A stretch of 64,000 nucleotides of DNA, taken from the sequence record OR352958.1. One strand, given 5' to 3'. This document shows positions 1 to 63,002 of this stretch, in pieces. The position numbers were made by a program, and so were the translations under genes. Origin of the DNA: Escherichia phage AV128. How positions within the stretch are numbered: position 1 is the first letter of the stretch; each line of letters opens with the position of its first letter. The notes under the pieces are model-generated. The model was not told where the DNA came from. It did no database searches and saw only the letters and a list, made by a program, of their open reading frames with translations.

Positions 1-110
1 TGACTTTCCAATTATGTGTTAATATTTTATTCATATTATAGTTTGCTTGAGACAGCTATATCAAGTAAAATTGTGATTCCAGCTTAGTAGTGGATAAAGG
101 GTGATCTTTT

Positions 111-140
111 ATGGCCAGAAATAATCTGGCCATTTTTTTA
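111..140 (+). terminator. Rho-independent terminator
   Basis: Perfect 8-bp stem atggccag/ctggccat, 7-nt loop, followed by T6. Confidence 0.5.
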
Positions 141-159
141 ATTTAAATTCACAAAAAGT

Positions 160-187
160 TTGCCTTTCTGAAATTCTGCATTATAAT
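160..187 (+). promoter_or_regulatory. sigma70-like promoter (TTGCCT-16-TATAAT)
   Basis: -35 and -10 hexamers with 16-bp spacer, about 25 bp upstream of the 214 start. Confidence 0.45.
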
Positions 188-213
188 CATATTAACTCAA
201 AACCGGAGGTAAT

Positions 214-429
214 ATGAAACTCATCGACCGCGCCATCAAATCCATTGATAATCACTCCACAGCGATTGCTTTCGTAATGGGATTTTGTTTCACTGCTGCG
301 TTTGGCGACGTTCAAACATTCAAGTCTGTCATCTTGTGCTGGTCCATCTGGTCACTTATTTCTCTGGTTTTGATTCTTCCGATGACGTGGCTTGTTCTTA
401 CTTGTCTTGAATCTCAAGGTGAAGACTGA
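214..429 (+). CDS. small membrane protein (two hydrophobic segments, acidic C-terminus)
   Basis: GGAGG RBS 4 nt upstream of ATG; hydrophobic stretches in translation. Confidence 0.5.
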   Translation: MKLIDRAIKSIDNHSTAIAFVMGFCFTAAFGDVQTFKSVILCWSIWSLISLVLILPMTWLVLTCLESQGED

Positions 430-650
430 TGAGACTATCAATCAAAGAGCGGGTAAAGCGACCCAAAAGGAGTGAGCCAAAGGCCAAATACACATGCATC
501 GGCGGACCTTTTGACGGTCAAGCGATGTGGCTTTCAAAATCTAATCCATCGACGGTTGAGTTCAGCCTTCATGGAATGCGCGGCAGATACCTGCTAAATA
601 GAGAAACAAGTGGCAGCACATTTGTGGAGTGGAAAGAAAATGGCAAATGA
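429..650 (+). CDS. hypothetical protein
   Basis: ORF start overlaps previous stop (ATGA); same-strand block. Confidence 0.4.
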   Translation: MRLSIKERVKRPKRSEPKAKYTCIGGPFDGQAMWLSKSNPSTVEFSLHGMRGRYLLNRETSGSTFVEWKENGK

Positions 651-873
651 ATTGACTTTAACAGTACCAAAAGAAGTGATAGACAAGGCATGCGCGGATT
701 CAGTGAAAGAATTGGCTGGAGTTCTTGGAATTGAAAATGAATTCAGCGTTCAGGTGCAATTCCTTAAGGATACTCTTCAAATCAAAGAGAACAAAGAAGC
801 TGGCGGCGGTGCGCCTTTAGCTTTGGCAATAATCTATGCGGGATTAATTTTGAAGTCTGGAGGTGAACTGTGA
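640..873 (+). CDS. hypothetical protein (C-terminal hydrophobic segment)
   Basis: Internal ATG at 640 chosen over GTG at 610; start uncertain. Confidence 0.4.
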   Translation: MANELTLTVPKEVIDKACADSVKELAGVLGIENEFSVQVQFLKDTLQIKENKEAGGGAPLALAIIYAGLILKSGGEL

Positions 874-1025
874 ATCGTTGGTGCAGTTGGAAGCTGAAAC
901 GTCTCGCCTGGGCCAATGCCGCCAATTCTGCTGGCTCAATCGCTGCTGGTGTTGGGTCGATATGGGATGGTGAAGGCCGTTGGGCCTCGCTGTGTGGCAC
1001 GCGCCTATTCTTTCGTGTAAAATAA
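870..1025 (+). CDS. possible small Trp-rich protein (GTG start)
   Basis: GGAGG 4 nt upstream of GTG; 51 codons; below ORF-track size cutoff. Confidence 0.2.
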   Translation: MNRWCSWKLKRLAWANAANSAGSIAAGVGSIWDGEGRWASLCGTRLFFRVK

Positions 1026-1068
1026 TATTCACCCTTCCCATATCGGGAAGGGAATTAAAGAGGTTATC

Positions 1069-1410
1069 ATGAACAATACTTTATCACAACTGCTAATCTG
1101 GACAATCGCTGCTATCATTGGCACCGTTATTATGATGTCAAGCGCAAAGGCTGAAACGGATATTTGCGCCAGACTTATTTCTGAGAATGGCGAGATTTAT
1201 TATGGAAACTCAAAAGGTGATTACATATCACCTGAAGTTTGCGCTCAGAAGAAAGCAGAAATGCAAAAGCAATATCATGAAGATCAATCTATATCTCAAG
1301 CCGCTCTGATTGAATTAAGTATATCAGCCATCATCTTTCTAATCGTTTTTATGCTCATTATTAAACCAAATAATGACAGCAACCGTCATATTCCTCTCAA
1401 AAGAAATTAA
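1069..1410 (+). CDS. exported membrane-anchored protein (signal peptide, C-terminal TM helix)
   Basis: N-terminal hydrophobic signal ending AKA-ET, two Cys in mature part, C-terminal TM; AGAGG RBS. Confidence 0.55.
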   Translation: MNNTLSQLLIWTIAAIIGTVIMMSSAKAETDICARLISENGEIYYGNSKGDYISPEVCAQKKAEMQKQYHEDQSISQAALIELSISAIIFLIVFMLIIKPNNDSNRHIPLKRN

Positions 1411-1448
1411 GGTTATAATACGGTTGTCGACAAAACGAGGACCGTAAA

Positions 1449-3446
1449 ATGCCAAGGCTAATATTCAAAAACAACTTTGAGGTCGCGCTGGCTCAACCAA
1501 CGACGACTTCAGACACCACAATCACAATTCGCTCAGGGTCAGGCTTTCCGACCTTGGGCGCAAACGAGCGTGTAGTGGCGACAATCGTCGACGCTGCAAC
1601 AGGCCTCCAATTTGAAATCGTCACAGTAACAGCCGTGGTTGGAAACGTCCTGACCGTGCAGCGTGCACAGGAAGGTACTGCAGCGCGTGCATGGAGCGTC
1701 GGAGATTTTTTATCCATAAGGGTGACGGCTGCCATATTGACAAGCACAGTAAGGAATTTTGGAGAATTACCTTCTGGAATAAACTTAAATGCCCTTACTG
1801 GTTCTTGGTTCGGTCAATACCAGCAGTCTTCTAATTCTGCGGCTTCGCAAGTTCTGAATTATCCTGTAGCCCAATCAGGCAGCCTTGAGGTTATTTGCTC
1901 GGCAAACAACTCTGGTGACCAATCTTGCACGCAAATATACAGCACGAATCCTGACAACAAGCAGTACAAAAGAACTTATAATTCAGAAACAAGCACATGG
2001 TCTACTTGGGCTAAAATATATAACTCTTCCGACGTGATTCCAGTCTCCAATGGAGGGACTGGTGTTTCAGACACAGGATCAATAAGAAGAGCAATACTGG
2101 TTCAAGGTGTAGTTTGTAACGATCAGACGGGGCCGCAGTCGTATAACAGCTATCGTTCACCCAACAGCACCTACACTTTCAAGGTTGACAACTCAGGCCA
2201 GGTGGCCTCAATCAATACGGGTACTGAAGAGGTTGTCCCGTTCGCCGTAAGCGCTGGCGGTACAGGGGCAACTAACGCTTACGACGCTCGCATCTCATTA
2301 GGTGTGGGAAGATTCAGCGAGCAAACCAACGAGACTAAAGTTCTAGCACCCAACTTTAGCACTTACATTTACGTGAACGACACCGACTGGGGATGCTTCA
2401 GCCCTACCGTTGGCGGTCGTATTGCGTTGAGTGTGGCGAGTGGTGGTACAGGGGCAACTAACGCTGCTCAAGCACGTACTAACCTCGGCATTGGTTCCGC
2501 AGCAACATTCAACACTGTACCGTTAGCTAACGGTGGTACAGGGGCAACCTCCGACGCTGCTGCTCGCGTCAACTTGAAGGTGGATAAGCTCGTTCAAAGT
2601 TCAACTGACACTAAACTTTTAGATGGTTCAGGAGAGCATACTTTCTTTATTACAGATGGGGATTGGGGGTATTTCAATAATTCTGACTCTTCTCGAATTG
2701 CTCTACCGGTAATTAGCGGAGGTACGGGAGGGAAAACCCCAGCAGAAGGTTCTGAAAACTTAGGGGCAATGCACTGTTGGTACGGTTCCTCAGTCTACTA
2801 CGGTGGTGGTGATTTACCAACTGGTATTGGATTCTACAGCGGGGACACGTCACCTTTTCCGGGAGGTAATGGGGCACCCTTCATATATGCGGAGATAATG
2901 ACTATTGCTGAAGGTGGTCGTGGAGGTAACTGGTCCCAAATAGGGTTCTCTACTATCACATATGAAGCCCCTCGCTACAGACAAAGGACTGCTGACCCTG
3001 CTTTAATTACTAACTGGAGAGATTTCTTGATTCGTGATCTCAACACTACAGTTGACAGTAACGGTTTCATTAAAATCGCATCCCCTATCGTGAAAATCAA
3101 AGGTGACGGTGGTGCTGAGTACAACGACGAGTCTGAAGGTTGTACAGTGGAACGCATCTCGAAAGGTGTCTACCGGATTTCAGGCTGCCTCGGCTTAAAC
3201 TCTGACGCATCGTGGGGCGGCACTGACGGCGGCTTCGAGATACCACTCGACCGAAACAAGCAACCTCGTATTTGGCTGGACTATAAAGTGAATGAAGATG
3301 GATCAATTGATATTTTCACGTATCACAGAACGCACAGCAACGCACCAGTATTTGCAAGGAATAACCTTGAAGGTTATGCAGACGGAGACCCAATAGACAT
3401 ACCAAAGGATGCATTTATCTCTGTGAGGGTGCAAATGCCAAAGTAA
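1449..3446 (+). CDS. tail fibre protein with phage tail-fibre repeats
   Basis: Four copies of xGGTGATNAxxARxNLG-type motif typical of the phage tail fibre repeat family; 665 aa. Confidence 0.8.
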   Translation: MPRLIFKNNFEVALAQPTTTSDTTITIRSGSGFPTLGANERVVATIVDAATGLQFEIVTVTAVVGNVLTVQRAQEGTAARAWSVGDFLSIRVTAAILTSTVRNFGELPSGINLNALTGSWFGQYQQSSNSAASQVLNYPVAQSGSLEVICSANNSGDQSCTQIYSTNPDNKQYKRTYNSETSTWSTWAKIYNSSDVIPVSNGGTGVSDTGSIRRAILVQGVVCNDQTGPQSYNSYRSPNSTYTFKVDNSGQVASINTGTEEVVPFAVSAGGTGATNAYDARISLGVGRFSEQTNETKVLAPNFSTYIYVNDTDWGCFSPTVGGRIALSVASGGTGATNAAQARTNLGIGSAATFNTVPLANGGTGATSDAAARVNLKVDKLVQSSTDTKLLDGSGEHTFFITDGDWGYFNNSDSSRIALPVISGGTGGKTPAEGSENLGAMHCWYGSSVYYGGGDLPTGIGFYSGDTSPFPGGNGAPFIYAEIMTIAEGGRGGNWSQIGFSTITYEAPRYRQRTADPALITNWRDFLIRDLNTTVDSNGFIKIASPIVKIKGDGGAEYNDESEGCTVERISKGVYRISGCLGLNSDASWGGTDGGFEIPLDRNKQPRIWLDYKVNEDGSIDIFTYHRTHSNAPVFARNNLEGYADGDPIDIPKDAFISVRVQMPK

Positions 3447-3453
3447 TTAAATC

Positions 3454-3480
3454 AAGGCGCTGAAAAGCGCCTTTACTTTA
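3454..3480 (+). terminator. Rho-independent terminator after tail fibre gene
   Basis: Stem aaggcgc/gcgcctt, loop tgaaaa, T-rich tail. Confidence 0.5.
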
Positions 3481-3499
3481 TGCTATATTAAGTTATACT
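3472..3499 (+). promoter_or_regulatory. sigma70-like promoter (TTTACT-16-TATACT)
   Basis: Hexamers and spacing read directly; upstream of 3530 gene. Confidence 0.4.
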
Positions 3500-3529
3500 C
3501 ATTATACGTTAACAAGTGAGGTGGATGAA

Positions 3530-3811
3530 ATGAAATTTGAAGACATCGACAAGGCCCAAAAAGCAAAGGCGCTGCCTAAATATGTCATCTGTGGTATTGA
3601 CCCTGAAGATAACCGCTTGGTTTTCTTAAAGCAAGTTGATAGCAATGAATCTGGCGACGCAGCTAATTGGTGCATCCCTTTGTTTGAGACAGCAGAAGAA
3701 GCCCAGAAGGTATTGTCAGAAAGCAATTTACCTAAACACTACAGTGTCGTTTCACAAGATGACATGGCAAAATTAGTGTTTAATTTTTATGGATATGGGA
3801 GAAGATTCTAA
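3530..3811 (+). CDS. hypothetical protein
   Basis: ATG at 3530 with GAGGTGG RBS; track start 3521 is GTG. Confidence 0.45.
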   Translation: MKFEDIDKAQKAKALPKYVICGIDPEDNRLVFLKQVDSNESGDAANWCIPLFETAEEAQKVLSESNLPKHYSVVSQDDMAKLVFNFYGYGRRF

Positions 3812-4020
3812 TGGAAATTAAATTATTGTCTGATTTCGTAAAAAGTATTGAAGCCAAAGGCATGACAATCAAGGCTAAGAAAGGCGGCATTGTCTGCATT
3901 GACAAACAACAAAGCAATCAAGGCATATCACTTGATGATATCAAAACTATGCAAAAGCTTAATAAGAAAGGCGACTTGCACAAGTTCTTGAAGGATATTG
4001 GAGCGGTGGACAATGGATAA
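3811..4020 (+). CDS. hypothetical protein
   Basis: GGGAG RBS; ATG overlaps previous stop. Confidence 0.45.
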   Translation: MEIKLLSDFVKSIEAKGMTIKAKKGGIVCIDKQQSNQGISLDDIKTMQKLNKKGDLHKFLKDIGAVDNG

Positions 4021-4111
4021 AGAGTCACGACGCTTTGCATTTTGGGGCACGGTATGTATTGCCGCGCTGTTTGGAATCGCTTATGCAATTGTTTACGCTG
4101 CAGCGGCATAG
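4013..4111 (+). CDS. possible 32-aa hydrophobic peptide
   Basis: Short ORF MDKESRRFAFWGTVCIAALFGIAYAIVYAAAA filling gap; weak RBS. Confidence 0.2.
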   Translation: MDKESRRFAFWGTVCIAALFGIAYAIVYAAAA

Positions 4112-4113
4112 TT

Positions 4114-4509
4114 ATGATCATCGATATTGAAAAGGCACTCAAGCGTGAATTGACGCCAGGTGCGACCCCTGGCGAAGAAGCCTACTACCGACCGAAAGCG
4201 CAGCGCACCAATGAGATTCCGGTTGTTAAGCGGACAGTGAATAAGAACGGTCAAAGGTCGCGACCGCGCTCTATCCGGTCCGGTGAAAGGCTGAAAACGA
4301 TTCGCCAGTGTCTACAACGACTCGAAATCATGGGTTGTCGCGCTTATATCGACCCTGATGGAAAGGTTTTGGTGAGAATTGGCAATAGTACACATCTGCA
4401 AGACGGATTGCCCTGCGGCGAATCCAGACCCATAGCCAAGACCGACCGTGTGGCTACTGGCCGCGAAATTGAGGAAAGCTGGTTGGGTGCTTTCTTATTA
4501 AAATATTGA
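4114..4509 (+). CDS. hypothetical protein
   Basis: ATG at 4114 directly after small ORF; track ORF 4042 starts earlier, start uncertain. Confidence 0.4.
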   Translation: MIIDIEKALKRELTPGATPGEEAYYRPKAQRTNEIPVVKRTVNKNGQRSRPRSIRSGERLKTIRQCLQRLEIMGCRAYIDPDGKVLVRIGNSTHLQDGLPCGESRPIAKTDRVATGREIEESWLGAFLLKY

Positions 4510-4516
4510 GGTTAAC

Positions 4517-4765
4517 ATGAATAAAAATGAATCAGTAGCATTCTTGCAATGGCTGGAAGGCGTGGTGGAGTATCGCGCGACAAGCGACCGTTTCATCTTT
4601 CAAGGCAAAAGCTTCAAGCGCAAAGGACAAGCCCAGAAAGCAGCGCGTAAGTACTGGAAGGAAGTTTATTCAGAATTTTTCTCTCAAATGGGAATCATCG
4701 GTGCAACCGTATCCGGCGACCCTGCGCAGTTGGTATCGATTGATGAATCCAATCGTTACAATTAA
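4517..4765 (+). CDS. hypothetical protein
   Basis: GAGG RBS 6 nt upstream of ATG. Confidence 0.45.
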   Translation: MNKNESVAFLQWLEGVVEYRATSDRFIFQGKSFKRKGQAQKAARKYWKEVYSEFFSQMGIIGATVSGDPAQLVSIDESNRYN

Positions 4766-4838
4766 TAAACCGATTTGAATGCCGCGCTATGCGGCTTTAT
4801 TATAGTTATTGTTAATCACCCTCATGAAAGGTAATGAT

Positions 4839-5219
4839 ATGTCAAATAAGAATGATTCTATTCACAACACATATACTAAAGGCAGCGGAATGGCCTTTGG
4901 TGGAAGCATCAAAATTAACGTGCCATCTTGCGATTATGATGGATTGGAAGTCGGCAACCGCGACTTAACATGGGTTTTACGTCGCCAATCCGATTTAGAA
5001 GAGAAGCTGGAAAATATTGAGCGTTCTCTTGAAAGTCTTCGCGACCAGCTTTTTGGTTGTCCTGAAGATGAGTCAAAACCTGAATCACATGCAGCCAATC
5101 GCGGTTTGATTGATAATATGCTTGCTATTACCGCTCGATCAATTGGTAAAACTGTGTCCATTGAATCATTGATCAGCCAGATTGCGGATGGCTTTGGTGA
5201 TGCCCATAAGAGTGAATAG
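4839..5219 (+). CDS. hypothetical protein (coiled-coil region)
   Basis: ATG at 4839 with AAAGGT RBS; track start 4809 is TTG. Confidence 0.45.
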   Translation: MSNKNDSIHNTYTKGSGMAFGGSIKINVPSCDYDGLEVGNRDLTWVLRRQSDLEEKLENIERSLESLRDQLFGCPEDESKPESHAANRGLIDNMLAITARSIGKTVSIESLISQIADGFGDAHKSE

Positions 5220-5292
5220 TGGGTGTTGCTGATTTAACCGTGAATCGTGGGTCGCTGTGGCGGCCCTTTCTTTTGCCTGCCGCGCAGGAGTG

Positions 5293-5399
5293 TACTGCAA
5301 ATTTACTGTGGGCACAAAATAGTACGGTACTGTCTAGGACTTTTTCTTTGAAAAGTTAGTGGACCAAATGTGTCGTATTTTGATTAGTGTACTGCAAAT
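5293..5399 (+). repeat. two direct copies of GTGTACTGCAAATTT (variant of the ATAGTGCAAAT motif) 96 bp apart
   Basis: Exact 15-mer at 5291 and 5387 in a non-coding stretch. Confidence 0.6.
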
Positions 5400-5489
5400 T
5401 TCATCAAGTACCAAAACGCACCAAAAGACCCATGCCCTAAAAACCACACGAACGCAATAATCAATCGCCGTTACAGTTTCCAGCGTTAC

Positions 5490-5760
5490 AATTAGAAAGC
5501 GAATGATTCGATGCATAATAATATGAAACATAATGATTCGAAAGCGAATGATTGCGTGTAGGATAATATCGGTGGGGATTATTATATATGTCGGTAATTT
5601 CGCATGCGTACTATTTTCGGGCGAAGGGTCGGCATATTCCTCGTTTTAGTTCGGAACGAAGGGAAAGTTTTGCGCCTTTATAAAACAACGACTTACGCGA
5701 CCCGCCTTAACGGTCCGATATAGGTGTCTATATAAAACAAGGACTTGCGCGATGTTCTCC
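5490..5760 (+). repeat. cluster of short direct repeats in non-coding DNA
   Basis: AAAGCGAATGATT twice, TATAAAACAAsGACTTrCGCGA twice, several CGAAGGG copies. Confidence 0.5.
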
Positions 5761-5916
5761 ATTTAACGTAATACCTGTTATGCGAACTAAGGAGCATCTC
5801 GAAGAAGATTATGCGACGACGAAGGGAAGGATAAAGGAGTTTTCGCGTAGGAGCGCACCGAGATAGGGACGAAGAAAAGCCGCGACTAAGCGCGGCCTAT
5901 TAGTAACGGAAGGGTA

Positions 5917-6207
5917 TTATAAGGAGACGATTTTAAAATAAGTCACTTCGCCGCCGAGTTGCGGTACAGCGATATATTCGCCGCCGATTTCGGTAATCGT
6001 ATAGACGAAGCCGTTAATCGTTACGCGGCAGGATACGATGTCCTCGTCGCGATACTTGTAAAGGTCGAGGAAGTTGATCGGCTCATAAATAGACTCGATA
6101 GTTGCGTCGACGTTAGAGAGATAAACGCTCTCTAAGGTTTCGCCAAATACGTTAGAGTTTTCGGAAGTCTCGACGCGAGCGGAACGGATAGCGGCTAAAG
6201 TAATCAT
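5917..6207 (-). CDS. small protein, paralog family member A
   Basis: AGGAG RBS; shares VY..NVD.TIE and NG...EIG motifs with 6493-6795 and 7020-7304 products. Confidence 0.55.
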   Translation of the reverse strand: MITLAAIRSARVETSENSNVFGETLESVYLSNVDATIESIYEPINFLDLYKYRDEDIVSCRVTINGFVYTITEIGGEYIAVPQLGGEVTYFKIVSL

Positions 6208-6274
6208 AATAATCTCCTAGTTGGTCGGGCGGGTAGCGACCTATTCGCTACCTCATCCCCTCTCGATATAAAAC

Positions 6275-6303
6275 ATTATAGTCTTAGTGTACGAAGAAGT
6301 AAA
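6275..6303 (-). promoter_or_regulatory. sigma70-like promoter (TTTACT-17-TATAAT) for paralog A
   Basis: Hexamers on minus strand; flanking sequence conserved with the other two paralog promoters. Confidence 0.5.
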
Positions 6304-6322
6304 GCACTTTTCGTTATTTTTT

Positions 6323-6475
6323 CTATTTATTTAAAGCGCGTCTCCCAAGTTCGACGACCCAAGCGGCGGCATCTTCCGCCTTATTAAATTCGTATAGATG
6401 CTTCTTATCTTCGAAGACGTAAAATAAAATACGTCCGAACTTATTAGCCTTCGCGCTTAACTCGATAGTTTTCAT
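6323..6475 (-). CDS. small hypothetical protein (50 aa)
   Basis: AAGGAG RBS 6 nt upstream; below ORF-track cutoff. Confidence 0.4.
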   Translation of the reverse strand: MKTIELSAKANKFGRILFYVFEDKKHLYEFNKAEDAAAWVVELGRRALNK

Positions 6476-6492
6476 CTTCTACTCCTTTTTCG

Positions 6493-6795
6493 TTATTTTG
6501 CGATAAAATATTTATAAGCCTTATCGCCTTCTACGTCGATATACTCGACGATAATTAACGCTTCGCCGCGCGGCGTAACCGTCTCGATAAGGGTAACGGC
6601 TTCGTCGTCGGTCTTCGCGAAGCGGATGGCACTACGTTCGGCGTACTTAATATCGTCGAAGGAAAGGCCGACGAAAGCGACCGCGCGGACCTTAATGATG
6701 GTGGATTCTAGTTCCGCGTTAACGGCGGCGATAAGAGAACGAACGGTTAAACGGTCTTCGTCGTAAGTAATGATAGAAGAGATTAAAGTGGTCAT
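6493..6795 (-). CDS. small protein, paralog family member B
   Basis: ATG at 6795 with GGGAG RBS; track ORF extends to 6852. Confidence 0.55.
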   Translation of the reverse strand: MTTLISSIITYDEDRLTVRSLIAAVNAELESTIIKVRAVAFVGLSFDDIKYAERSAIRFAKTDDEAVTLIETVTPRGEALIIVEYIDVEGDKAYKYFIAK

Positions 6796-6851
6796 AATAA
6801 AACTCCCGATGCTAGTAGAAGGAAGGGCCATCGCCCGTCTCGATATAAACA

Positions 6852-6879
6852 AGTATACGCGAGTGTACGAAGAAGTAAA
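6852..6879 (-). promoter_or_regulatory. sigma70-like promoter (TTTACT-16-TATACT) for paralog B
   Basis: Near-copy of the 6275-6303 promoter element. Confidence 0.5.
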
Positions 6880-6923
6880 GAAAAAAGATAAAATAATTTA
6901 TCTCATTTTTATCGAAAAAGTGC

Positions 6924-6951
6924 TTTACTTTTTTCTACACTATATTATAAT
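6924..6951 (+). promoter_or_regulatory. sigma70-like promoter (TTTACT-16-TATAAT) for paralog C
   Basis: GTGCTTTACTT...TATAAT conserved with the two minus-strand copies; divergent from 6852-6879. Confidence 0.5.
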
Positions 6952-7019
6952 GTACTCATATCGGGACGGGATGAGTTAACGAATAGGTCGTTAACGCCTC
7001 TCCCAACTAGGAGTTTAAA

Positions 7020-7304
7020 ATGGCTATTCTTAACGTTTCTTCTATTCGTAACGCTATCGTCGAGAACTACGGCGTAAAACAAATTTTATCCGAAGTCTAC
7101 GCCGCGAACGTAGACCAAACTATCGAGGCGGGTGGGGTAACGGTCGCCGAGGCGTTTAAACTTTACGCGGCGTTACCGGAATCGGACCGCGAAGCCTTCG
7201 AAGTAAACGTTAACGGATATTTCTTCGAAGCGGTCGAAATCGGTAATATCTTACTCGTTATGGGCGAAGAAGAATTTGAGACCTTCTCCCTCGTCGAAGC
7301 GTAA
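7020..7304 (+). CDS. small protein, paralog family member C
   Basis: AGGAG RBS; protein motifs shared with paralogs A and B. Confidence 0.55.
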   Translation: MAILNVSSIRNAIVENYGVKQILSEVYAANVDQTIEAGGVTVAEAFKLYAALPESDREAFEVNVNGYFFEAVEIGNILLVMGEEEFETFSLVEA

Positions 7305-7384
7305 GAGAGGATTTTTAGAGCGTCGTGCGCGGCGCTTTAATAAAATTCTTTCGCGCCTAGCGCCCTAACAAATAGGAGTTTATT

Positions 7385-8011
7385 ATGGTTAGCTTAAATC
7401 GCTTTTCTACTAGCGGCGACGTTATCGCAACTAAGACCGCCGACCTCGTTGCATTCTATAATGCAAATTCCGGCTCAAAACCGATTAAGAAGTTTGCGGA
7501 CCGCCGGACCGCCGAGACTCGCGTAATCGCGTTAATCGAGTCCTTAAACGCGCTCGATGAGCCGTCCAACGAGTCGCCCATCCCTGACGCGAAGCCGCGC
7601 GAGGAAGTGTCCAGCGATGTAAAAACGCATAAGGCGCGTGCGGTCGTTAAAAAGGCCGAGCCGACCCAGGAAGAACTCGATGCGATGAGCGATGAAGAGT
7701 ATGAAGCCTTCGTTAAGAGCGGCTTAAACGATAGTGCAAATTGCGTAGTGCAAAATGGAACTCCTTCCCATCGCCGTTCGAATAGCGAAGGTATTGCAAA
7801 AAGTTGGGATAACAAGGAAGTGGCGCAAAAGCGTCTCACCCGTAACGGCGTTATTGTCGAGGGTGTAGGAGAGTTCAAATCGGTCCGCGTAGCGTTTGCT
7901 GCGCTGGGCTTACCAGATAGCAAGCACATTCGCTTCCGCATGAAGCTTAAAGAAGCTGGACGCTTGAACTTCGAGTTCGGCAACAAGTCCTACACCTTCC
8001 AGATCATCTAA
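7385..8011 (+). CDS. hypothetical protein
   Basis: AGGAG RBS; contains two motif copies (7731, 7746) near its 3' end. Confidence 0.5.
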   Translation: MVSLNRFSTSGDVIATKTADLVAFYNANSGSKPIKKFADRRTAETRVIALIESLNALDEPSNESPIPDAKPREEVSSDVKTHKARAVVKKAEPTQEELDAMSDEEYEAFVKSGLNDSANCVVQNGTPSHRRSNSEGIAKSWDNKEVAQKRLTRNGVIVEGVGEFKSVRVAFAALGLPDSKHIRFRMKLKEAGRLNFEFGNKSYTFQII

Positions 8012-8017
8012 TCGAAT

Positions 8018-8041
8018 GGCGGCCCTTCGGGGTCGCTTTTC
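8018..8041 (+). terminator. Rho-independent terminator
   Basis: Stem gcggccc/gggtcgc with ttcg loop and TTTT tail, 7 nt after stop. Confidence 0.5.
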
Positions 8042-8061
8042 ATAGTGCAAATTGGTGGCTT

Positions 8062-8325
8062 ATGAACACGCTTATTCTCATCGCTACGTTGTCCATCGGA
8101 AGTGGTCGCGCCTTATCCCTTTATGACCATAGTGCAAATTGCGCTTACCCAACGCGCGTTGCGGCGATAGTTAATAGTGCAAATCGAATGCTATTTGAGA
8201 CTTGTTGGCGGGTAGATAACGAGAAAGGGCGCATCGTCTTAGGTTATAGTGCAAATCTGCTGGTGGAGTCGTTCGATTGGACGGCGGAAGGTCGTAAATT
8301 GTTACGTAAAGTGACTAAAAGATGA
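8062..8325 (+). CDS. doubtful ORF inside motif array
   Basis: GGTGG RBS and bracketing terminators, but three SAN tripeptides are translations of the DNA motif. Confidence 0.2.
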   Translation: MNTLILIATLSIGSGRALSLYDHSANCAYPTRVAAIVNSANRMLFETCWRVDNEKGRIVLGYSANLLVESFDWTAEGRKLLRKVTKR

Positions 8326-8384
8326 CTTATAATAATACACTTTCTAACGCGTTTATGGTTGTAGCCTTCCCCGTCGTATTACCG

Positions 8385-8426
8385 ATGGCCCTAGAAGTTG
8401 AGAAAATGTGTTCTAGGGCCATTTTA
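8385..8426 (+). terminator. strong Rho-independent terminator
   Basis: Perfect 12-bp stem atggccctagaa/ttctagggccat, 14-nt loop, T-rich tail. Confidence 0.6.
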
Positions 8427-8439
8427 TAGTGCAAATTGG

Positions 8440-8913
8440 CTAGTGGCGGGAGAATTGCTCACCCTCTTTGGCTGCCTCTCCAAAATCCTTGTAGAAATCG
8501 TCCATGGAACGGCCCATTTTACTATTGCCATTTTCATCAATCATCGTGATGCCGTAGATGATATTCAGTTCACGGATAGCATTAAGCTTGGCTGATGCCG
8601 CGACTTCTGGATCACGCACAAGCTTCACTAAATTGTGGATGGAACTCTTTACGCTCCACAATTCCTTCAATGGCATCTCTTCCATACGCTTTTTGTAGCG
8701 CATCTTGTAGTACGGATTGCGCTGCGTGCAGAGGATTCGCTGGCCAGTGTAGTTATCGGTCGCAACCTCCATGCCAAATACTAGTGCAAAAGCTGCGCGC
8801 ATGTCATGGCCCTGAATAACAAGGTCAATGAACTCATCGAATAAAGCCTGATTGTGCTCTGCAAATCGCGGGTCTTCAAAGTCCTCAGGCATCGCTACAT
8901 AATCTTGACTCAT
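8440..8913 (-). CDS. hypothetical protein (about 157 aa)
   Basis: Long ORF downstream of a strong minus-strand promoter; no Shine-Dalgarno; start 8913 or 8928. Confidence 0.45.
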   Translation of the reverse strand: MSQDYVAMPEDFEDPRFAEHNQALFDEFIDLVIQGHDMRAAFALVFGMEVATDNYTGQRILCTQRNPYYKMRYKKRMEEMPLKELWSVKSSIHNLVKLVRDPEVAASAKLNAIRELNIIYGITMIDENGNSKMGRSMDDFYKDFGEAAKEGEQFSRH

Positions 8914-8948
8914 AGTGCAAAATCCCATAGTGCAAATTAATAGTGTGA

Positions 8949-8977
8949 ATTATACAATGATTGAACATTATATTCAA
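8949..8977 (-). promoter_or_regulatory. sigma70-like promoter (TTGAAT-17-TATAAT)
   Basis: Near-consensus hexamers on minus strand about 35 bp upstream of the 8913 start. Confidence 0.5.
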
Positions 8978-9140
8978 GTGCAGATTGATGTTCAAATTGG
9001 CTGTAAACGTACACAAACCATAGTGCTGAATGAATATCGGACCGTGGTGCGTGGTGTACTGTTTGATACGTATAAAAGAAATCCATCCCTTTCGCCGCTT
9101 GTTATGCAAATCAATGACTTAGCCGCTGCTGGATGGTTGA

Positions 9141-9430
9141 AGCGTATCATGAAGTATCATCCGTATTGCCGCAAGTCTTTGTTTTTACTTATATCTTACG
9201 GATGATACGTATAAATATAAGTTTAGTATAAGTATGAGGATGTAGAAAAAAATTAATTTAAATTAATTCAAAATGGAGTTAATTGTTTTTTTTCAAAGTT
9301 GTATAAAGTATAGCGGCGACGCGTATCATCCGTATCATCCGTAAGATGTACCACTGAACCCAGTCGCGGCGCACCATAGAAGTGTGTGGAGTGAACTACG
9401 GATAGGTCCAAATCTTACGTCATTATACGC
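9141..9430 (+). repeat. iteron-flanked AT-rich element A
   Basis: TACGGATGATACG at 9197; AT-rich core 9241-9300; inverted CGTATCATCCGTATCATCCGTA at 9322; homologous to 61620-61900. Confidence 0.65.
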
Positions 9431-9539
9431 TTAAATTCTATGCGTAAGGTTAGCCAGCTAACTATATCTCCTTTTTAATTTCAAGCGGCAATCCCATAGA
9501 CGGCGCAGCCTACAGGCCCACACACCACGGTACACGCTC

Positions 9540-9720
9540 CAATTCCTAGTGATTCCCTCTACAATCCCACAGCACCACAGTACAATATTCTTCCAAATAC
9601 GCACACATATTCAAGACACACAAATCACGTCACAATCCTCGTTTCACACCATCCTCTAATAGATTTACACAAATCAATCGCTTTATCCGATAATAAAGCC
9701 TCACAAACAACAGGCAAACA
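9540..9720 (+). other. G-depleted CA-rich non-coding tract
   Basis: About 14 G in 180 nt on plus strand by hand count; CACA-type runs; no ORF. Confidence 0.6.
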
Positions 9721-58323: not shown

Positions 58324-59463
58324 TTAGATACCAGTCATACGGACGACTGCGAAAGGACGCTTGAGCAGAACGCCTGCTGTTGCGTTTGCGTAGTCTTCAA
58401 CGTAGCTCTTAGCACGTTTCTCAACGCCCAGAGTCATGAACTTAGTCTGAACCAGCTGGCTGAATACGGAACCATCGTCGCTTGAGCCATCAATTGAGGA
58501 ATCGATGTGATCAGCGTACAGATATGCCACGTTCAGGAAAGTCGGGTCACTGCCAAGTGCGCCGTTGAGTTCCGGTGCAGATTTGATCTTCATCTTCGGA
58601 TAAGTCTGGGTGATCCAGTCACGTACAGAAATACCGAAGTCAGTGGTGTTTGACAGCCAATCAATAGAGTTGGTCGGCAGCGCCAGAGTCATATCAACCT
58701 TCTCTGGATCAATCTGGTCCTGAGAGTTGACACGGATTTGACGAACCATCAAACGGATGTCTGCAGTCACCTGTTGGAAGGTCGCAGTGGCCCAGCCGGA
58801 AGTGGTGTTTGAAGTCATCGCTGCTGGCAGGTTTGGATCATTCAGGAAGCCGAACGTGCGGTTGTTCCCGTTGTACCAGCCATAGAAGCCGATTGCGTTA
58901 CGCATGATTTCCAGAGATACAGCAGCCTGCTGGCGCTTGGTCTCTGCGGAGTTCAGACGCATCGCAGACGCGCGACCTTCTTCCAGCATACCGACTGCCA
59001 TGCCCATTTCACCGCGAACGATGGAACGTCGCTCAAAGTTTACGTTCCAGCTTGCCAGAGGAATAGAGGTGAAATCACCATATTCAACTGCGGTGCCAGC
59101 TGGTTCAACGATGCCCTGAACGATTTCCGCATCTTCCCACTGACCAACGGTGTCAATGCCAACCAGCTCGTCGATTTTACGAGCAGCGGTCATGATTTTG
59201 ACGAAGCCAGGCAGCCACTGTTGCAGGAACTGCAGCGGGGTCGGGATTGATGGCGTGGTCTGCGGCGCAGTAAACGCGGCGTCACCTACGCGGAAAGCGC
59301 CTGCACGGTTTAAGTGCTCAATCTGATCACGCACAATCGCGGAATCAAACACAATACCGATACGAGCAAGCTGGGAAACAGCCGCGTCGGTGACGGATTG
59401 CATATCAAAAGGGCGCACCTTGCTCGCTGGGAGGCGAGAGTGTGTTTGGCTAATGCGAGTCAT
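58324..59463 (-). CDS. putative major capsid protein
   Basis: 379 aa, downstream of scaffold-like gene; by gene order and size. Confidence 0.55.
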
Positions 59464-60097: not shown

Positions 60098-61516
60098 TTA
60101 TTCCCCTTTCAACCAAGCTTCAAATGCTTCGTCAGTTGCTGCAGAATCCGCAGCAGCCTTTTGTTTTGCGACTACACGCTGTTTTTGACCGTGTTCAACG
60201 CCGCGCAGATAATTATCCACCACGTCAAACTCAGCACCATCAACGCACTTCAAGCCTAACTTTTTAGCGCCATATTTCGCTACGGACTTGGAGTCCATAG
60301 TTGCATGATCAAAGGCACCAACAACTTTAGACAGGCGCTGGTAGAGGCTATTCTTACGAGCAGAATCAGCGTAGAAAGCAGCAACTGCTGAATCAGATGC
60401 CATTGAGTGTTCCCCTTTTGCTGGACCTGGCGACGCTTTCGCCGCTTTTGTCGGTTTGTCATCTTTTTCGACCGAAGCCCCCTTTACGTTGCTGTTTTGC
60501 AGGCCGCTAACCACATCTTCAGCTTTGTCGCAAGGTGATACATCTTCAGCCTTGACTTCAACTTCTTCGTCTTTGACTTCGGCTTCAACTTCTTCTTCAT
60601 CACCTACCGCGCCACCTTTCAGTTTTGCAATAAGTGCTTCGATTTGGCTGATCAGTTGCGGAAGCTCGCCGTCAGCGTGAGATTCAGTTTCAACTTCAAA
60701 CTTCTCTTCACCTTCTGGAGTCTCTTCAGCTTCTGCTTTAACTTCTGGATCAACCATCACTTCTTCATGTTCTTCGGTTGAATCCTTCTCTTCTGCTTTC
60801 ACTTCGACTTCGTCCTGATGAGCAGCTTCGGTGCTCTCTTCATTCAGAAATTGTTCGAGCGCAGGGATCAGTGATTTCAGCTGTTCAACAGCATTATCAC
60901 GCGCTTTACCTTTTAACGGTTTTGGCATGTCTAAATCCTCGTTGGATGGTGTTACAGTCGTCAAACAAAGATGGTCAAAGCAACGACCATCCAGCACCCG
61001 TGCACCTGGTACTCGACCAACGTCCACGAGAGCAATGTGGTTGCCGCGAAGAGTTGTCTGTACCACTTCATACGGCTGCCCGTCAAACTCTCCAGACTGT
61101 ATGATGAATTCACAGTCATAGCCCAAAGACAAGTCAACCTTTCCAGAATCGATGGCCTTCTTCAGACGGCGGCTAAAAACTTTGAGGTCGCCGCGCATCC
61201 ATGGCTTGTCATAATAAACATTGCCAGTTAGAACGCCATCAACACCATACTCTTCGGGTGCTGTGTTATCCTCATCACCTTCGAATCCAGAAAGCATTTC
61301 GTGATTGTCGATGAAAGGGATATTTTTGAATGAATCTATCGCTTCGGGGTCTTTCACCGCTGACTCTGGGCGATAAACTTTTACGATGCGATTCGGATCA
61401 CCATCAAGTCCAACCTGACCTGCAGAATAGTCAAAAATGCCAAATGACGAAATGGGACAACCCACAATCGTCAAGAATCCATTTTTGTCAATTTCGCGTG
61501 CCGTTTGCATTCGCAT
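60098..61516 (-). CDS. putative scaffolding/prohead core protein (acidic coiled-coil middle region)
   Basis: Glu/Lys-rich central region; TATAAT about 35 bp upstream. Confidence 0.45.
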   Translation of the reverse strand: MRMQTAREIDKNGFLTIVGCPISSFGIFDYSAGQVGLDGDPNRIVKVYRPESAVKDPEAIDSFKNIPFIDNHEMLSGFEGDEDNTAPEEYGVDGVLTGNVYYDKPWMRGDLKVFSRRLKKAIDSGKVDLSLGYDCEFIIQSGEFDGQPYEVVQTTLRGNHIALVDVGRVPGARVLDGRCFDHLCLTTVTPSNEDLDMPKPLKGKARDNAVEQLKSLIPALEQFLNEESTEAAHQDEVEVKAEEKDSTEEHEEVMVDPEVKAEAEETPEGEEKFEVETESHADGELPQLISQIEALIAKLKGGAVGDEEEVEAEVKDEEVEVKAEDVSPCDKAEDVVSGLQNSNVKGASVEKDDKPTKAAKASPGPAKGEHSMASDSAVAAFYADSARKNSLYQRLSKVVGAFDHATMDSKSVAKYGAKKLGLKCVDGAEFDVVDNYLRGVEHGQKQRVVAKQKAAADSAATDEAFEAWLKGE

Positions 61517-61619
61517 CCACCCTCAAATAAGTATTGTGTATTATATCTAATGAAAAAAACTTAGGCAAACAATAATTATGGTTTGAATATGTATAACAAC
61601 CGATATAGCCGCGCCTTAA

Positions 61620-61900
61620 TTAGTGTGATACGGATGATACGGATAAAATGAGGCGTATTTTTATCCGTATCGGTGTATAAGCCGCGCTATCACTGGTGTG
61701 CTACGGATGATACGGATGATACGGATACTTTTCATATATAAGAGTTTATAAAAAAAATAAAATTAAATTAGATATATAATTTTAAATTAATTTATTTGAA
61801 TTCCTATAAAGTATCGCGGCAACGCGTATCATCCGTATCATCCGTAAGATTCTTTTGAAAACAACTACTTACTTGATACGGATGATACGTCATTATACGC
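61620..61900 (+). repeat. iteron-flanked AT-rich element B (paralog of element A)
   Basis: GATACGGAT tandem units at 61627 and 61702, AT-rich core 61741-61800, inverted CGTATCATCCGTATCATCCGTA at 61825, GATACGGATGATACG at 61875. Confidence 0.65.
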
Positions 61901-61933
61901 GTAAAACCCTGCGGCAATCCATTGCCAGGCGAT

Positions 61934-62071
61934 TCAGTGAATATTAAAAAGCACTCCAGCAACTAAAACGCCAATCAGCATCGAGTCGTAAACAGCCCAT
62001 TTCCAAGAAAGCAAAGAGTTGCAATTAATATTTCGCACTTTAACGTAACGTGACTGAATAATCTTTTGCAT
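61934..62071 (-). CDS. small membrane peptide (45 aa, C-terminal hydrophobic segment)
   Basis: AAAGAGGAAG RBS 4 nt upstream; below track cutoff. Confidence 0.3.
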   Translation of the reverse strand: MQKIIQSRYVKVRNINCNSLLSWKWAVYDSMLIGVLVAGVLFNIH

Positions 62072-62081
62072 AACTTCCTCT

Positions 62082-63002
62082 TTAGTTCAACTTAATTGCG
62101 GTGATCTGTCCGTAAACGGTAGATGTCAATGCGTCTGTGCATTGATAGTTTAGATACACATTGCCAGGCGCGGCAAGAGTAATTATCTTTGTTGGAATAT
62201 TGCCGCCGAAACGACCTGCAGCCCGAATGCCAGCAGACATCGTGAATGCATCATCCGTAATATCTGAATTACTTGTTGACAATTTTACTGTAATTCCGGT
62301 ATTCGCTTGAACTCCTTCTGTTGCGACAGTCAACTGACTTGCTGTCACAAGCCATTTCCCTGCAGGCAGGTTTAATGTTGCCAGATTCACCAGAGTTGTC
62401 GGAGGATTGCTTACACTATTGCTTGTGTTTTGCACATTGCTTGCAGCAGCGTTAAGAACTCCAGAACCATCAATTGATAGTGTCGTTCCTACTTTTACGC
62501 CACCCAAGGTTGATGCTGATGCAATCGGTAATGAGTATTGAGTAACACTAATTGTACCGTCACCTGCAACACTTATGCCACTTCCTATCTTGACGCCGCC
62601 GAGAACAGAAGCCGTTGCCGCTGGTAACGTGTATTGGTTGCCGCTGGATTTGACTACCTTAACGGCGACAGCATTCTTGGACCCTCCAGACTCCATGCCT
62701 ATAATCACTGCTTCTCCAAAAGCGATGGTGATTGTAGATGCAGTTAAACCAGTCTGCACGTCTGTTATGTCCATTTTGGGAACTGAAAGTGTCAGATTCG
62801 GCTTGCTGGTAGAATCGCCATCATTACCGATCATAAAGAATTGGCCGACTGAATTGTATCCAGATGCCAATGGCGGACTCAATGGAACAATCAAATTTTT
62901 ATCGGATGTAAATTCTGAAACAATCGCCAAGCCGTTAGCATATACAGCAGGCAATACTGGCGTCTGTCCAGATAGAGGAAACGTGCTGATTGGTATCGTC
63001 AT
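62082..63002 (-). CDS. repeat-containing structural protein (fibre-like)
   Basis: Repeated ASxLGGVKxG...DGxxxV blocks; ATG 63002 with GAGGT RBS; track start is GTG. Confidence 0.45.
   Translation of the reverse strand: MTIPISTFPLSGQTPVLPAVYANGLAIVSEFTSDKNLIVPLSPPLASGYNSVGQFFMIGNDGDSTSKPNLTLSVPKMDITDVQTGLTASTITIAFGEAVIIGMESGGSKNAVAVKVVKSSGNQYTLPAATASVLGGVKIGSGISVAGDGTISVTQYSLPIASASTLGGVKVGTTLSIDGSGVLNAAASNVQNTSNSVSNPPTTLVNLATLNLPAGKWLVTASQLTVATEGVQANTGITVKLSTSNSDITDDAFTMSAGIRAAGRFGGNIPTKIITLAAPGNVYLNYQCTDALTSTVYGQITAIKLN

Follow-up and report, generated by a model that had tools for sequence, protein, structure and literature searches.

A co-oriented array of a short motif in the terminal repeat of a Wifcevirus, at the gene for the small terminase

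The 64,000-nt stretch of Escherichia phage AV128 analysed here (OR352958.1; called the window, in whose coordinates all positions are given) carries a 1.2-kb array of a short asymmetric motif, with the 9-bp core TAGTGCAAA and the 11-bp form ATAGTGCAAAT, every exact copy of which lies on the + strand. The array is contained in the direct terminal repeat (DTR) of the genome, near its left end and around terS, the gene for the small terminase, and it recurs in a second phage genus. It is very probably a DNA element under selection that acts in cis, is polar with respect to strand and is bound up with the terminal repeat. A role in the recognition of DNA by the terminase is put forward below as a tentative explanation, and is weighed there against other possible readers of the array.

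Results and discussion

A motif confined to one strand and one region

A scan of both strands of the 64 kb found TAGTGCAAA at 7732, 7746, 8043, 8130, 8175, 8247, 8427, 8782, 8913 and 8928 (span 7732-8936), and gave no exact copy in the remainder of the window, where uniform composition would predict about 0.5 copies in all; the probability that ten copies out of ten should share a strand is about 0.002. This bears out an earlier note on the same DNA, made from its letters, which had reported at least ten co-oriented copies within 1.2 kb. The 11-mer ATAGTGCAAAT is present in seven exact copies (7731, 8042, 8129, 8174, 8246, 8426 and 8927), and with up to one mismatch there are nine matches, on the + strand only and all within 7458-8937; dinucleotide-preserving shuffles gave a mean of 1.8 such matches and a maximum of 5. 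The window-wide count against shuffled sequence that the note had proposed as a check therefore finds the motif confined to one region and above the shuffled maximum. The weak match at 7458 is itself probably due to chance, being variable between relatives. The individual copies, including three degenerate members, are listed in Table 1.

Neighbouring copies are 13-297 bp apart, and there is no helical phasing or periodicity; the irregularity of the spacing had been described correctly, though not its range, which was given as 15-350 bp. The + strand, on which the copies lie, is coding in two of the genes that they enter and template in terS, and further copies are in non-coding DNA. The placement of the array is as previously described: in non-coding DNA, inside open reading frames (ORFs), at two terminators, and over the start codon of the gene at 8440-8913, which is overlapped by the first copy (8912) of a triplet. 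The terminators, at 8018-8041 and 8387-8425, are annotated as such in phage WFH, and each is abutted by a copy. The ORF copies had been said to lie in different frames. Those in + strand ORFs do occupy two frames, but only two of the three are usable, the third reading TAG, and 4 of the 5 share one frame.

A CRISPR array was rejected, because the unit is 11 bp rather than 23-47 bp, the intervals range from 13 to 297 bp and some copies are within conserved genes; the view that the array is neither CRISPR-like nor explained by gene calls is upheld. The motif strings had no match in Rfam, no host-factor consensus (DnaA box, IHF, marbox, LexA, EcoKI) was recognised in the motif by eye or by scan, and a full-text literature search with the motif strings returned only primers. 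No such array was found in E. coli satellites or prophages among 5,426 complete genomes. A scan of IMG/VR for a doublet at 14-15 bp gave 89 loci, all of which, Wifcevirus contigs apart, were unrelated 9-bp tandem repeats.

Table 1. Copies of the motif, related elements and adjoining genes in the window
Feature	Position	Strand	Remarks
Direct terminal repeat (DTR), 3851 bp	5424-9274		Present once in window; mapped from relatives' ends
Second outer copy GTGTACTGCAAATTT	5290-5304	+	97 bp further out; conserved within Wifcevirus
Terminus-proximal conserved element TGATTAGTGTACTGCAAATTT (terS sense AAATTTGCAGTACACTAATCA)	5381-5401	+	Present in all Wifcevirus genomes checked
Outer copy GTGTACTGCAAATTT	5387-5401	+	Part of element 5381-5401
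208-aa protein gene, phrog_4730	7385-8011	+	terS neighbour in all genera examined
Doublet of copies ATAGTGCAAAT and GTAGTGCAAAA, 14 bp apart	7731-7755	+	In linker of ORF 7385-8011
Exact copy	8042-8052	+	Right after terminator 8018-8041; 10 bp 5' of ORF 8062 ATG
87-aa ORF, signal-peptide-like N-terminus	8062-8325	+	Real gene, conserved in PA1 and Kyle; three copies as x-S-A-N
Exact copy	8129-8139	+	In ORF 8062-8325; codons CAT AGT GCA AAT
Exact copy	8174-8184	+	In ORF 8062-8325; codons AAT AGT GCA AAT; orthologous to PA1 and Kyle copies
Exact copy	8246-8256	+	In ORF 8062-8325; Chi GCTGGTGG at 8259-8266 next
Exact copy	8426-8436	+	Right after bidirectional terminator 8387-8425; 4 bp off terS stop codon
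terS, small terminase, 157 aa	8440-8913	-	phmmer vs PDB: 7UXE (E217 TerS decamer), E=9e-33
Degenerate member inside terS	8705-8716		AATCCGTACTAC in terS sense
Copy CTAGTGCAAAA	8781-8791	+	In terS, antisense strand of gene; invariant in 10 genomes
Triplet: 8912 ATAGTGCAAAA, 8927 ATAGTGCAAAT, 8940 ATAGTGTGAAT	8912-8950	+	Between terS promoter -10 box and ATG
Degenerate member	8940	+	ATAGTGTGAAT
Two tandem sigma-70-like promoters into terS	8949-8995	-	TTGAAC-17-TATAAT, TTGAAT-17-TATAAT; consensus scan only
Degenerate member	9020		ATAGTGCTGAAT

The array lies inside the terminal repeat

The window comes from a Wifcevirus, a PB1-like E. coli myovirus, and 28 E. coli/Shigella phage records match it at 93-97% identity; such phages have genomes of 66-72 kb and terminal repeats of about 3.7 kb (PMC6563267, PMC6753283). 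The ends of the DTR were mapped by homology from the PhageTerm DTR of phage Mansfield (record 1-3673) and the record ends of phages WFH and WFC, which place the left genome end at 9274 and the right genome end, or inner DTR boundary, at 5424. WFC agrees on the left end, and its deposited right end is 81 bp further out. The DTR deposited for WFC is 3784 bp long and ends between the two outer motif-like elements described below (window 5343-5424); this offset from Mansfield, WFH and Pantoea phage Kyle may reflect either an imprecise end call or true heterogeneity of the ends.

The DTR holds CpG-rich early genes, the array and the gene at 8440-8913(-), and amounts to 5.4% of the genome, a share that resembles headful redundancy. 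A CpG-rich early island had indeed been noticed beside the array, and what had been missed is that island and array together make up the DTR. The array is situated 0.3-1.5 kb from the left genome end, the nearest copy being about 320 bp from it.

Two copies related to the motif lie outside the DTR. They had been placed at 5293 and 5389 and taken to mark the other side of an early, plastic island; they exist, with true positions of 5290-5304 and 5387-5401, but the latter is part of a conserved element just outside the inner DTR end, at the same distance from it in Wifcevirus and Kylevirus. GTACACTAATCA starts 31 nt outside the inner boundary in the window and 32 nt outside it in Kyle, whose terminal element reads AATTTCACAGTACACTAATCA. 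Within Wifcevirus the TTTGCA part of the element is variable (GAATTTGCGG in three genomes) and GTACACTAATCA is constant. The unique DNA just past the boundary reads, in the sense of terS, TGGTGCGTTTTGGTACTTGATGAAATTTGCAGTACACTAATCA in the window and GACCGCGATTTAGTACCTGGTCCAATTTCACAGTACACTAATCA in Kyle, and although this flanking DNA has diverged, GTAC is found 12 nt from the boundary in both. In Serratia phage MTx ATTTCACAC is found at +22 from the boundary, and ATTT(G/C)(A)CA is present at +22 to +25 in three genera. The terminal element can be read as the array motif with a 5-nt insertion (TAGTG-TACTG-CAAAT), both motif halves being shared, which is a resemblance and not proven identity. The second outer copy is specific to Wifcevirus and was not found in Kyle. 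The left terminus of MTx (1-18, by PhageTerm) opens with a perfect 6-bp inverted repeat, TAGTGTgcgtACACTA, and shares TAGTGT and GTACACTAA with the terminal element of Wifcevirus and Kylevirus.

The DTR is mosaic in the ten Wifcevirus genomes compared, with breakpoints at about 5922/5927, 6318-6486 and 7027-7369 and a swapped segment bearing the doublet at about 7729-7760. It had been proposed that the copies are recombination hotspots, or they might bound mobile cassettes in the manner of T4 PeSL, and the mosaicism of the DTR, together with the fact that the motif-bearing segment at 7729-7760 is itself an alternative allele, would suit such a role. The first three breakpoints are not beside any copy, however, and the array region (7369-9347) is colinear in 10 of 10 genomes, which makes this explanation hardly credible.

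Conservation within and beyond Wifcevirus

The nine copies from 8042 through 8940 are kept in all ten Wifcevirus genomes. The copy at 8042-8052 is invariant among them, as is the triplet at 8912-8950 save for a 1-nt indel. Confinement of the motif to the DTR is borne out by Mansfield, 49 kb of which gave just two chance 8-mer hits.

A tblastn search with TerS matched 358 phage records. Those of two Pantoea phages of the genus Kylevirus, PA1 and Kyle, encode TerS proteins 41-44% identical to that of the window (PA1 about 41%) and 60% identical to each other, and carry an array at the same place and in the same orientation, with the core TTYGCACTA in the terS-sense strand. Scored with the regular expression (A/T)T(T/C)(T/C)G(C/T)ACTA(T/C), the reverse complement of the core, PA1 has 16 copies (about 18 by eye), every one of them on the terS-sense strand; they begin in the 3' part of terS and reach as far as the stop codon of the conserved gene that comes next. 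Kyle has 11 (about 16 by eye) in the same location and on the same strand. There are thus 10-18 copies within 0.7-1.2 kb per genome in the window phage and the two Pantoea phages. The record of Kyle includes both copies of an exact 3603-bp DTR, with the start of terS at 357. The second check suggested in the earlier note, a search of related phages, accordingly shows the motif to be conserved both in Wifcevirus relatives and in another genus; together with its confinement to one region, this means that the observation survives the grounds for refutation that the note had named.

The ORF at 8062-8325 has homologues in both Pantoea phages (PA1 4599-4883(-), Kyle 938-1225(-)), and comparison of the three allows selection on DNA to be distinguished from selection on protein. 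The wobble base is the same in all three at four of the six conserved codons inside copies, against one of 16 outside (Fisher p=0.009), and the residue before S-A-N is variable (H, N, Y or D), yet its codon always ends in AT; within the limits of a comparison of sequences, these features show that selection acts on the DNA and not on the protein. Two of the three copies in this ORF have been lost in Kyle and new ones are found elsewhere: individual sites come and go along the DNA, with density and strand retained. It is scarcely credible at all that the copies are phage-specific promoters, or a by-product of the x-S-A-N protein repeat or of chance. The copy at 8042 does precede an ORF, and three copies encode S-A-N in a single protein. 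Set against this, no copy is found upstream of any gene outside the DTR, copies lie inside genes on coding and template strands alike, the motif also occurs in non-coding DNA and in two frames, Rfam gave no match, and chance is ruled out by the shuffles; the wobble bases and the variable residue likewise tell against a protein repeat.

Beyond these two genera the situation is different. In Pbunavirus E217 terS is separated from the same neighbouring gene by a mere 170 bp, in which TTCTAGG occurs three times. MTx has terS inside its PhageTerm DTR, with three copies of an unrelated 26-bp repeat there. About ten other clades with TerS, taken from IMG/VR, showed no comparable array.

A possible role in packaging

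The gene that the array enters and overlaps was not recognised as terS in the earlier note, which had listed a binding-site array for a phage or host protein among its candidates; this remains the best class of explanation. Its product matches, over nearly its full length, the small terminase of Pseudomonas phage E217 as solved by cryo-electron microscopy (7UXE), its homologue in Mansfield is annotated TerS, and it matches phrog_4783; a Pfam scan gave no match. The distance of terS from the left DTR end is about 360-380 bp in Wifcevirus, Kylevirus and Myosmarvirus alike, and terL is far off, in Mansfield about 8.6 kb away and past the left edge of the window.

The sequence around the left genome end is itself repetitive. 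ATCATCCGTA is present in 11 copies, on both strands, in two clusters, one straddling the left end (9156-9334) and the other at 61629-62250. A module of about 150 bp is duplicated at the two places (9130-9420 and 61600-61930); it comprises TACGGATGATACGGATGATACGCGTyGCCGCkATACTTTATA, an AT-rich block and then CGTATCATCCGTA, and its core is identical at 49 of 51 positions. In one of its occurrences the module spans the left DTR end, and in the other it is upstream of a gene for 472 amino acids at 60098-61516(-). Because the module recurs at 61.6-61.9 kb, the left-end sequence alone cannot specify the terminus, whereas the ATAGTGCAAAT array is unique; for the same reason the ATCATCCGTA repeats are disfavoured as the TerS site. 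The duplicated module could be an origin or a late-operon regulatory module. No DnaA box (TTWTNCACA) was found in 5000-9700.

That the array copies are themselves the iterons of a replication origin is highly improbable. They are direct repeats of about 11 bp, and in relatives primase genes lie just across the left DTR boundary, but their wide and irregular spacing (13-297 bp) is unphased, most of them are inside genes, and no AT-rich unwinding element adjoins them within the array. The inverted and direct ATCATCCGTA repeats around AT-rich blocks, at 9156-9334 and 61629-62250, make a better candidate for an origin.

It is possible, and we suggest it only tentatively, as the likeliest of the specific roles considered, that the array is a polar recognition or assembly platform for the terminase, contacted through TerS, which would mark the start of packaging, might also repress terS and might be related to the signal for the end cut. 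The helix-turn-helix domains of TerS would bind the asymmetric sites AATTTGCACTAT (terS sense). All the DNA-binding domains of a TerS ring would be presented in one rotational sense, and therefore sites for it should be direct repeats and not palindromes. Being unique in the genome, the array would tag one of the two copies of the AT-rich module as the packaging start, and would orient TerL so that the DNA is cut at 9274 and translocated in the direction of terS; the array would then be part of the first DNA packaged (the first 0.3-1.5 kb). Occupancy of the three copies between the terS promoter and its ATG could keep TerS low. At the other end, with 5424 as the termination cut, the site variant at 5381-5401, just past the second DTR copy, would place the final cut 20-30 bp before it, and a cut so positioned would give exact repeats of 3.85 kb.

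Several observations favour this proposal. The array flanks and enters terS and overlaps its start, and is placed likewise in PA1 and Kyle. Its uniqueness in the genome, its recurrence in a second genus, the selection on its DNA, the terminal element at a fixed distance from the inner DTR boundary and the duplication of the left-end module also count in favour. Recognition sites of both pac and cos type are generally found in or beside terS, a rule with which the position of the array at terS and the left end agrees. Pbunavirus JG024 is reported to be circularly permuted and headful-packaged, with 36 of 161 long reads starting at 59,376 and a dip in coverage just upstream (PMC10913387). This putative pac lies in the primase-terS intergenic region, 601 bp upstream of terS and about 50 bp from an AT-rich block; the coverage implies packaging toward terS, and the left ends of Wifcevirus and Kylevirus fall in the AT-rich block that corresponds to that of JG024. 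The TerS of E217 is a decamer whose overexpression lowers phage yield (PMC9611059), a dosage effect that fits a need for tight control of terS. In the basic helix of TerS, [QKR]R-N-P/R-Y-Y is found only in the two motif-bearing genera and E-[SANH]-N-P-Y-Y/F in others, which is weak evidence, confounded with phylogeny.

Other observations weigh against it. TerS of E217 showed no appreciable binding in vitro to the DNA that it was offered (PMC9611059). The 10-18 unphased copies, 13-297 bp apart over 0.7-1.2 kb, are unlike a compact pac or cosB. The triplet overlapping the terS promoter is specific to Wifcevirus, with none in Kyle, and the doublet at 7731/7745 is dispensable, being absent from three of nine Wifcevirus relatives, which have the other linker allele. 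Pbunavirus and at least ten other clades with TerS homologues are without such an array. The motif is nearly unchanged between TerS proteins that are about 41-44% identical, when a quickly evolving TerS and its site ought to change together. Finally, extra constraint on the motif columns is not significant within the genus (6 of 88 variable, against 102 of 861 nearby, p=0.2; at wobble positions, 3 of 12 inside copies and 23 of 75 outside), the Wifcevirus genomes being too similar to reveal it.

A more far-reaching version, which we consider quite unlikely, is that Wifcevirus, Kylevirus and Myosmarvirus are "precise headful" phages descended from a pac-type PB1-like ancestor. A single polar word, read by the terminase on one strand, would follow closely on the start cut as the array and recur in split form 20-30 bp past the end cut; it would both license initiation and stop the motor, so that a redundancy of about 5% became an exact repeat of 3.6-3.85 kb. 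If true, this would amount to a sequence-programmed stop signal for a headful-type motor, and the array would be a polar brake or licensing track and not a mere docking site.

Other possible readers of the array

The recognition of the array by something other than TerS, such as an early protein encoded in the DTR (for example the phrog_4730 protein) or a host nucleoid protein, acting in genome entry or in the early-to-late switch, is judged rather unlikely. It might take the form of a T5-like injection stop or anchoring at the far end of the first-entering DTR copy, or of silencing of the early operon and terS. As in the pre-early DTR of T5, small early genes in the DTR lie behind near-consensus sigma-70 promoters; and if packaging runs from 9274 toward terS, the right end at 5424 would enter first, leaving the array and the ATCATCCGTA repeats distal and overrunning into unique DNA. 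Repeat region 3 of T5 likewise consists of 1.2 kb of direct repeats and overruns the LTR by 270 bp (bioRxiv 10.1101/866236). The occurrence of one motif in genera with divergent TerS would also fit a conserved host or phage reader, and phrog_4730 is well conserved, with 36-49% identity across five genera. Against this, DnaA boxes are absent from the DTR and the motif is not known to match any host-factor consensus; phrog_4730 is found also in Pbunavirus and Myosmarvirus, both of which are without the motif, and domain and profile searches detected no DNA-binding domain in it; the order of genome entry is an inference; and the array is largely coding, when the iss region of T5 is non-coding.

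The RecBCD enzyme of E. coli recognises the Chi sequence GCTGGTGG, and the distribution of Chi in these phages bears on another explanation. The DTR in the window has one exact Chi, at 8259-8266, and near-variants such as GCTAGTGG at 8440; the window as a whole is not significantly enriched (4 copies, 1.4 expected). In the Kylevirus and Myosmarvirus relatives, exact Chi sites cluster densely around terS in the first 2 kb or so of the DTR: nine in Kyle (255-1972), seven in PA1 (3861-5433) and four in MTx (179-1276). They read CCACCAGC on the terS-sense strand, with none on the opposite strand within the DTR and one reverse site past the DTR boundary in each of Kyle and MTx; in the Pantoea phages Kyle and PA1 they are interleaved with copies of the motif. 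RecBCD coming in from the left genome end would meet these clusters in their active orientation, and the motif, on the strand ending 3' at 9274, has the strand and orientation of an active Chi.

The array might accordingly be a polar signal of Chi-like logic and not a static docking site: a translocating enzyme, having entered at the left end, would read it on one strand, with the effect of modulating a helicase-nuclease or the packaging motor. The shared strand and orientation, the co-oriented Chi clusters in the same stretch of Kyle, PA1 and MTx, and the irregular spacing, indifference to coding and positional turnover typical of Chi-type signals are in keeping with this. We nevertheless regard it as improbable, since the motif is unrelated to Chi in sequence and is not over-represented genome-wide, and since Kylevirus retains both Chi and motif, so that there has been no simple substitution of one for the other. 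It is more improbable still that the copies are strand-specific nick sites, like the single-strand interruptions of T5, or priming sites for duplication of the DTR: strict co-orientation would suit an event on one strand, the array is restricted to the DTR and the motif-related terminal element adjoins a real cut, but nicks are not known from any Wifcevirus, no nickase gene lies beside the array, and the DTR ends mapped by PhageTerm are sharp and located elsewhere.

Comparison with known systems

Known TerS sites include cosB of lambda (R1-R3), the pacL and pacR boxes of SPP1, the pac hexamers of P1, and the pac sites of P22 and Sf6 inside terS; they consist of 2-7 repeats within 100-200 bp, often at fixed spacing or as inverted pairs. 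The array resembles them in being made of short repeats in or beside terS, near the initiation cut and on what would be the first-packaged side, and in being unique in its genome, and some of the known sites also overlap the terS coding sequence. It differs in having 10-18 co-oriented copies spread irregularly over 0.7-1.2 kb and through three genes.

In T7, Dunn & Studier (1983) reportedly described a 7-bp unit repeated about a dozen times to either side of the 160-bp terminal repeat. Here too a short co-oriented motif is tied to the boundaries of a direct terminal repeat, and the T7 arrays are thought to serve concatemer processing; those arrays, however, are compact, non-coding and just outside a very short repeat, whereas the present one is inside a 3.85-kb repeat, with one or two variants outside. 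The ten 11-bp repeats of plasmid R1 parC, which surround the parMR promoter and are bound by ParR, offer a further parallel, in that about ten 11-bp direct repeats lie over the promoter of the presumed binder's gene in an autoregulatory layout. The parC repeats are contiguous and phased, unlike those considered here, which occur in a virulent phage without partition genes.

The iss region of T5 is non-coding, with many inverted repeats or palindromes and eight DnaA boxes (bioRxiv 10.1101/866236). Both it and the array are rich in direct repeats over about 1.2 kb, lie at one end of a long DTR with early genes driven by host promoters, and are better conserved than the neighbouring genes, their function being unproven; the array, by contrast, consists of one asymmetric, non-palindromic motif, is mostly in genes and has no DnaA box. 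With Chi the array shares its co-orientation to a DNA end, irregular spacing and indifference to coding, and in the Pantoea and Serratia relatives true Chi clusters are found along this stretch and on this strand, but its sequence is unrelated and it is not spread through the genome.

Neighbouring genes and other features of the terminal repeat

The family of the 8062-8325 protein (87-95 amino acids) has two conserved cysteines, and its genes lie between terS and the phrog_4730 gene in Wifcevirus and Kylevirus. Pfam and NCBIfam scans of nine local ORFs gave nothing useful. For phrog_4730, a profile search against PDB found nothing, and two large homologue searches returned only near-identical Wifcevirus copies. 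Well over 100 near-identical variants of this 208-residue protein were listed, some of them in Logan/ENA assemblies and others in contigs carrying the name of E. coli, Salmonella or even Xanthomonas, a spread which suggests that Wifceviruses often turn up in public sequencing runs as contaminants or passengers.

Over the early DTR genes (5425-7700) CpG has an observed/expected ratio of 2.08, compared with 0.96-1.22 in the remaining window at similar G+C; by eye, the early region of PA1 looks similar. Near-consensus sigma-70 promoters at 6275-6303(-), 6852-6879(-) and 6924-6951(+) (TTTACT-16/17-TATAAT or TATACT) share a longer conserved block (GTGCTTTACTTCTTCGTACAC...) and read into divergent small early genes in the DTR, an arrangement like that of the host-takeover genes in the terminal repeats of T5 and SPO1. 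Among the mosaic segments, the gene for 50 amino acids at 6323-6475 is an insertion specific to the window phage, that for 94 amino acids at 7020-7304 is replaced in other relatives, and at the 5922/5927 junction some relatives have an extra segment of about 230 bp with a small "transcriptional regulator". Just beyond its DTR, at 3250-3292, Mansfield has about six tandem units of (GGGTCGT)n, and the window has about one, at approximately 5225-5250, before a terminator at 5249-5266.

Implications

Accounts of Wifcevirus cover the DTR and, in one record, TerS, but not the array. Recognition repeats linked to the ends of tailed-phage genomes are already known; as judged from its sequence, the array appears to be a new and unusual case in its copy number, spread, polarity and passage through genes, although its function is unproven. 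Even if something other than TerS should read it, the array would stand as a polar DNA signal that is linked to the genome end and under strong selection.

For the PB1-like phages, which include the therapeutic Pbunaviruses, structures of both TerS and TerL have been solved and no DNA recognition site is known. The array provides a concrete, conserved candidate sequence for recognition by TerS, in phages that can be grown on engineered E. coli K-12 (Bas98-101 of the BASEL collection). Packaging signals matter for the rebooting and engineering of phages, for avoiding or exploiting transduction, and for obtaining correct genome ends in assemblies. The array, together with the element at a fixed distance from the other end, may also offer a handle on how long, exact terminal repeats arise, a question that extends to phages of the T5, SPO1 and N4 types.

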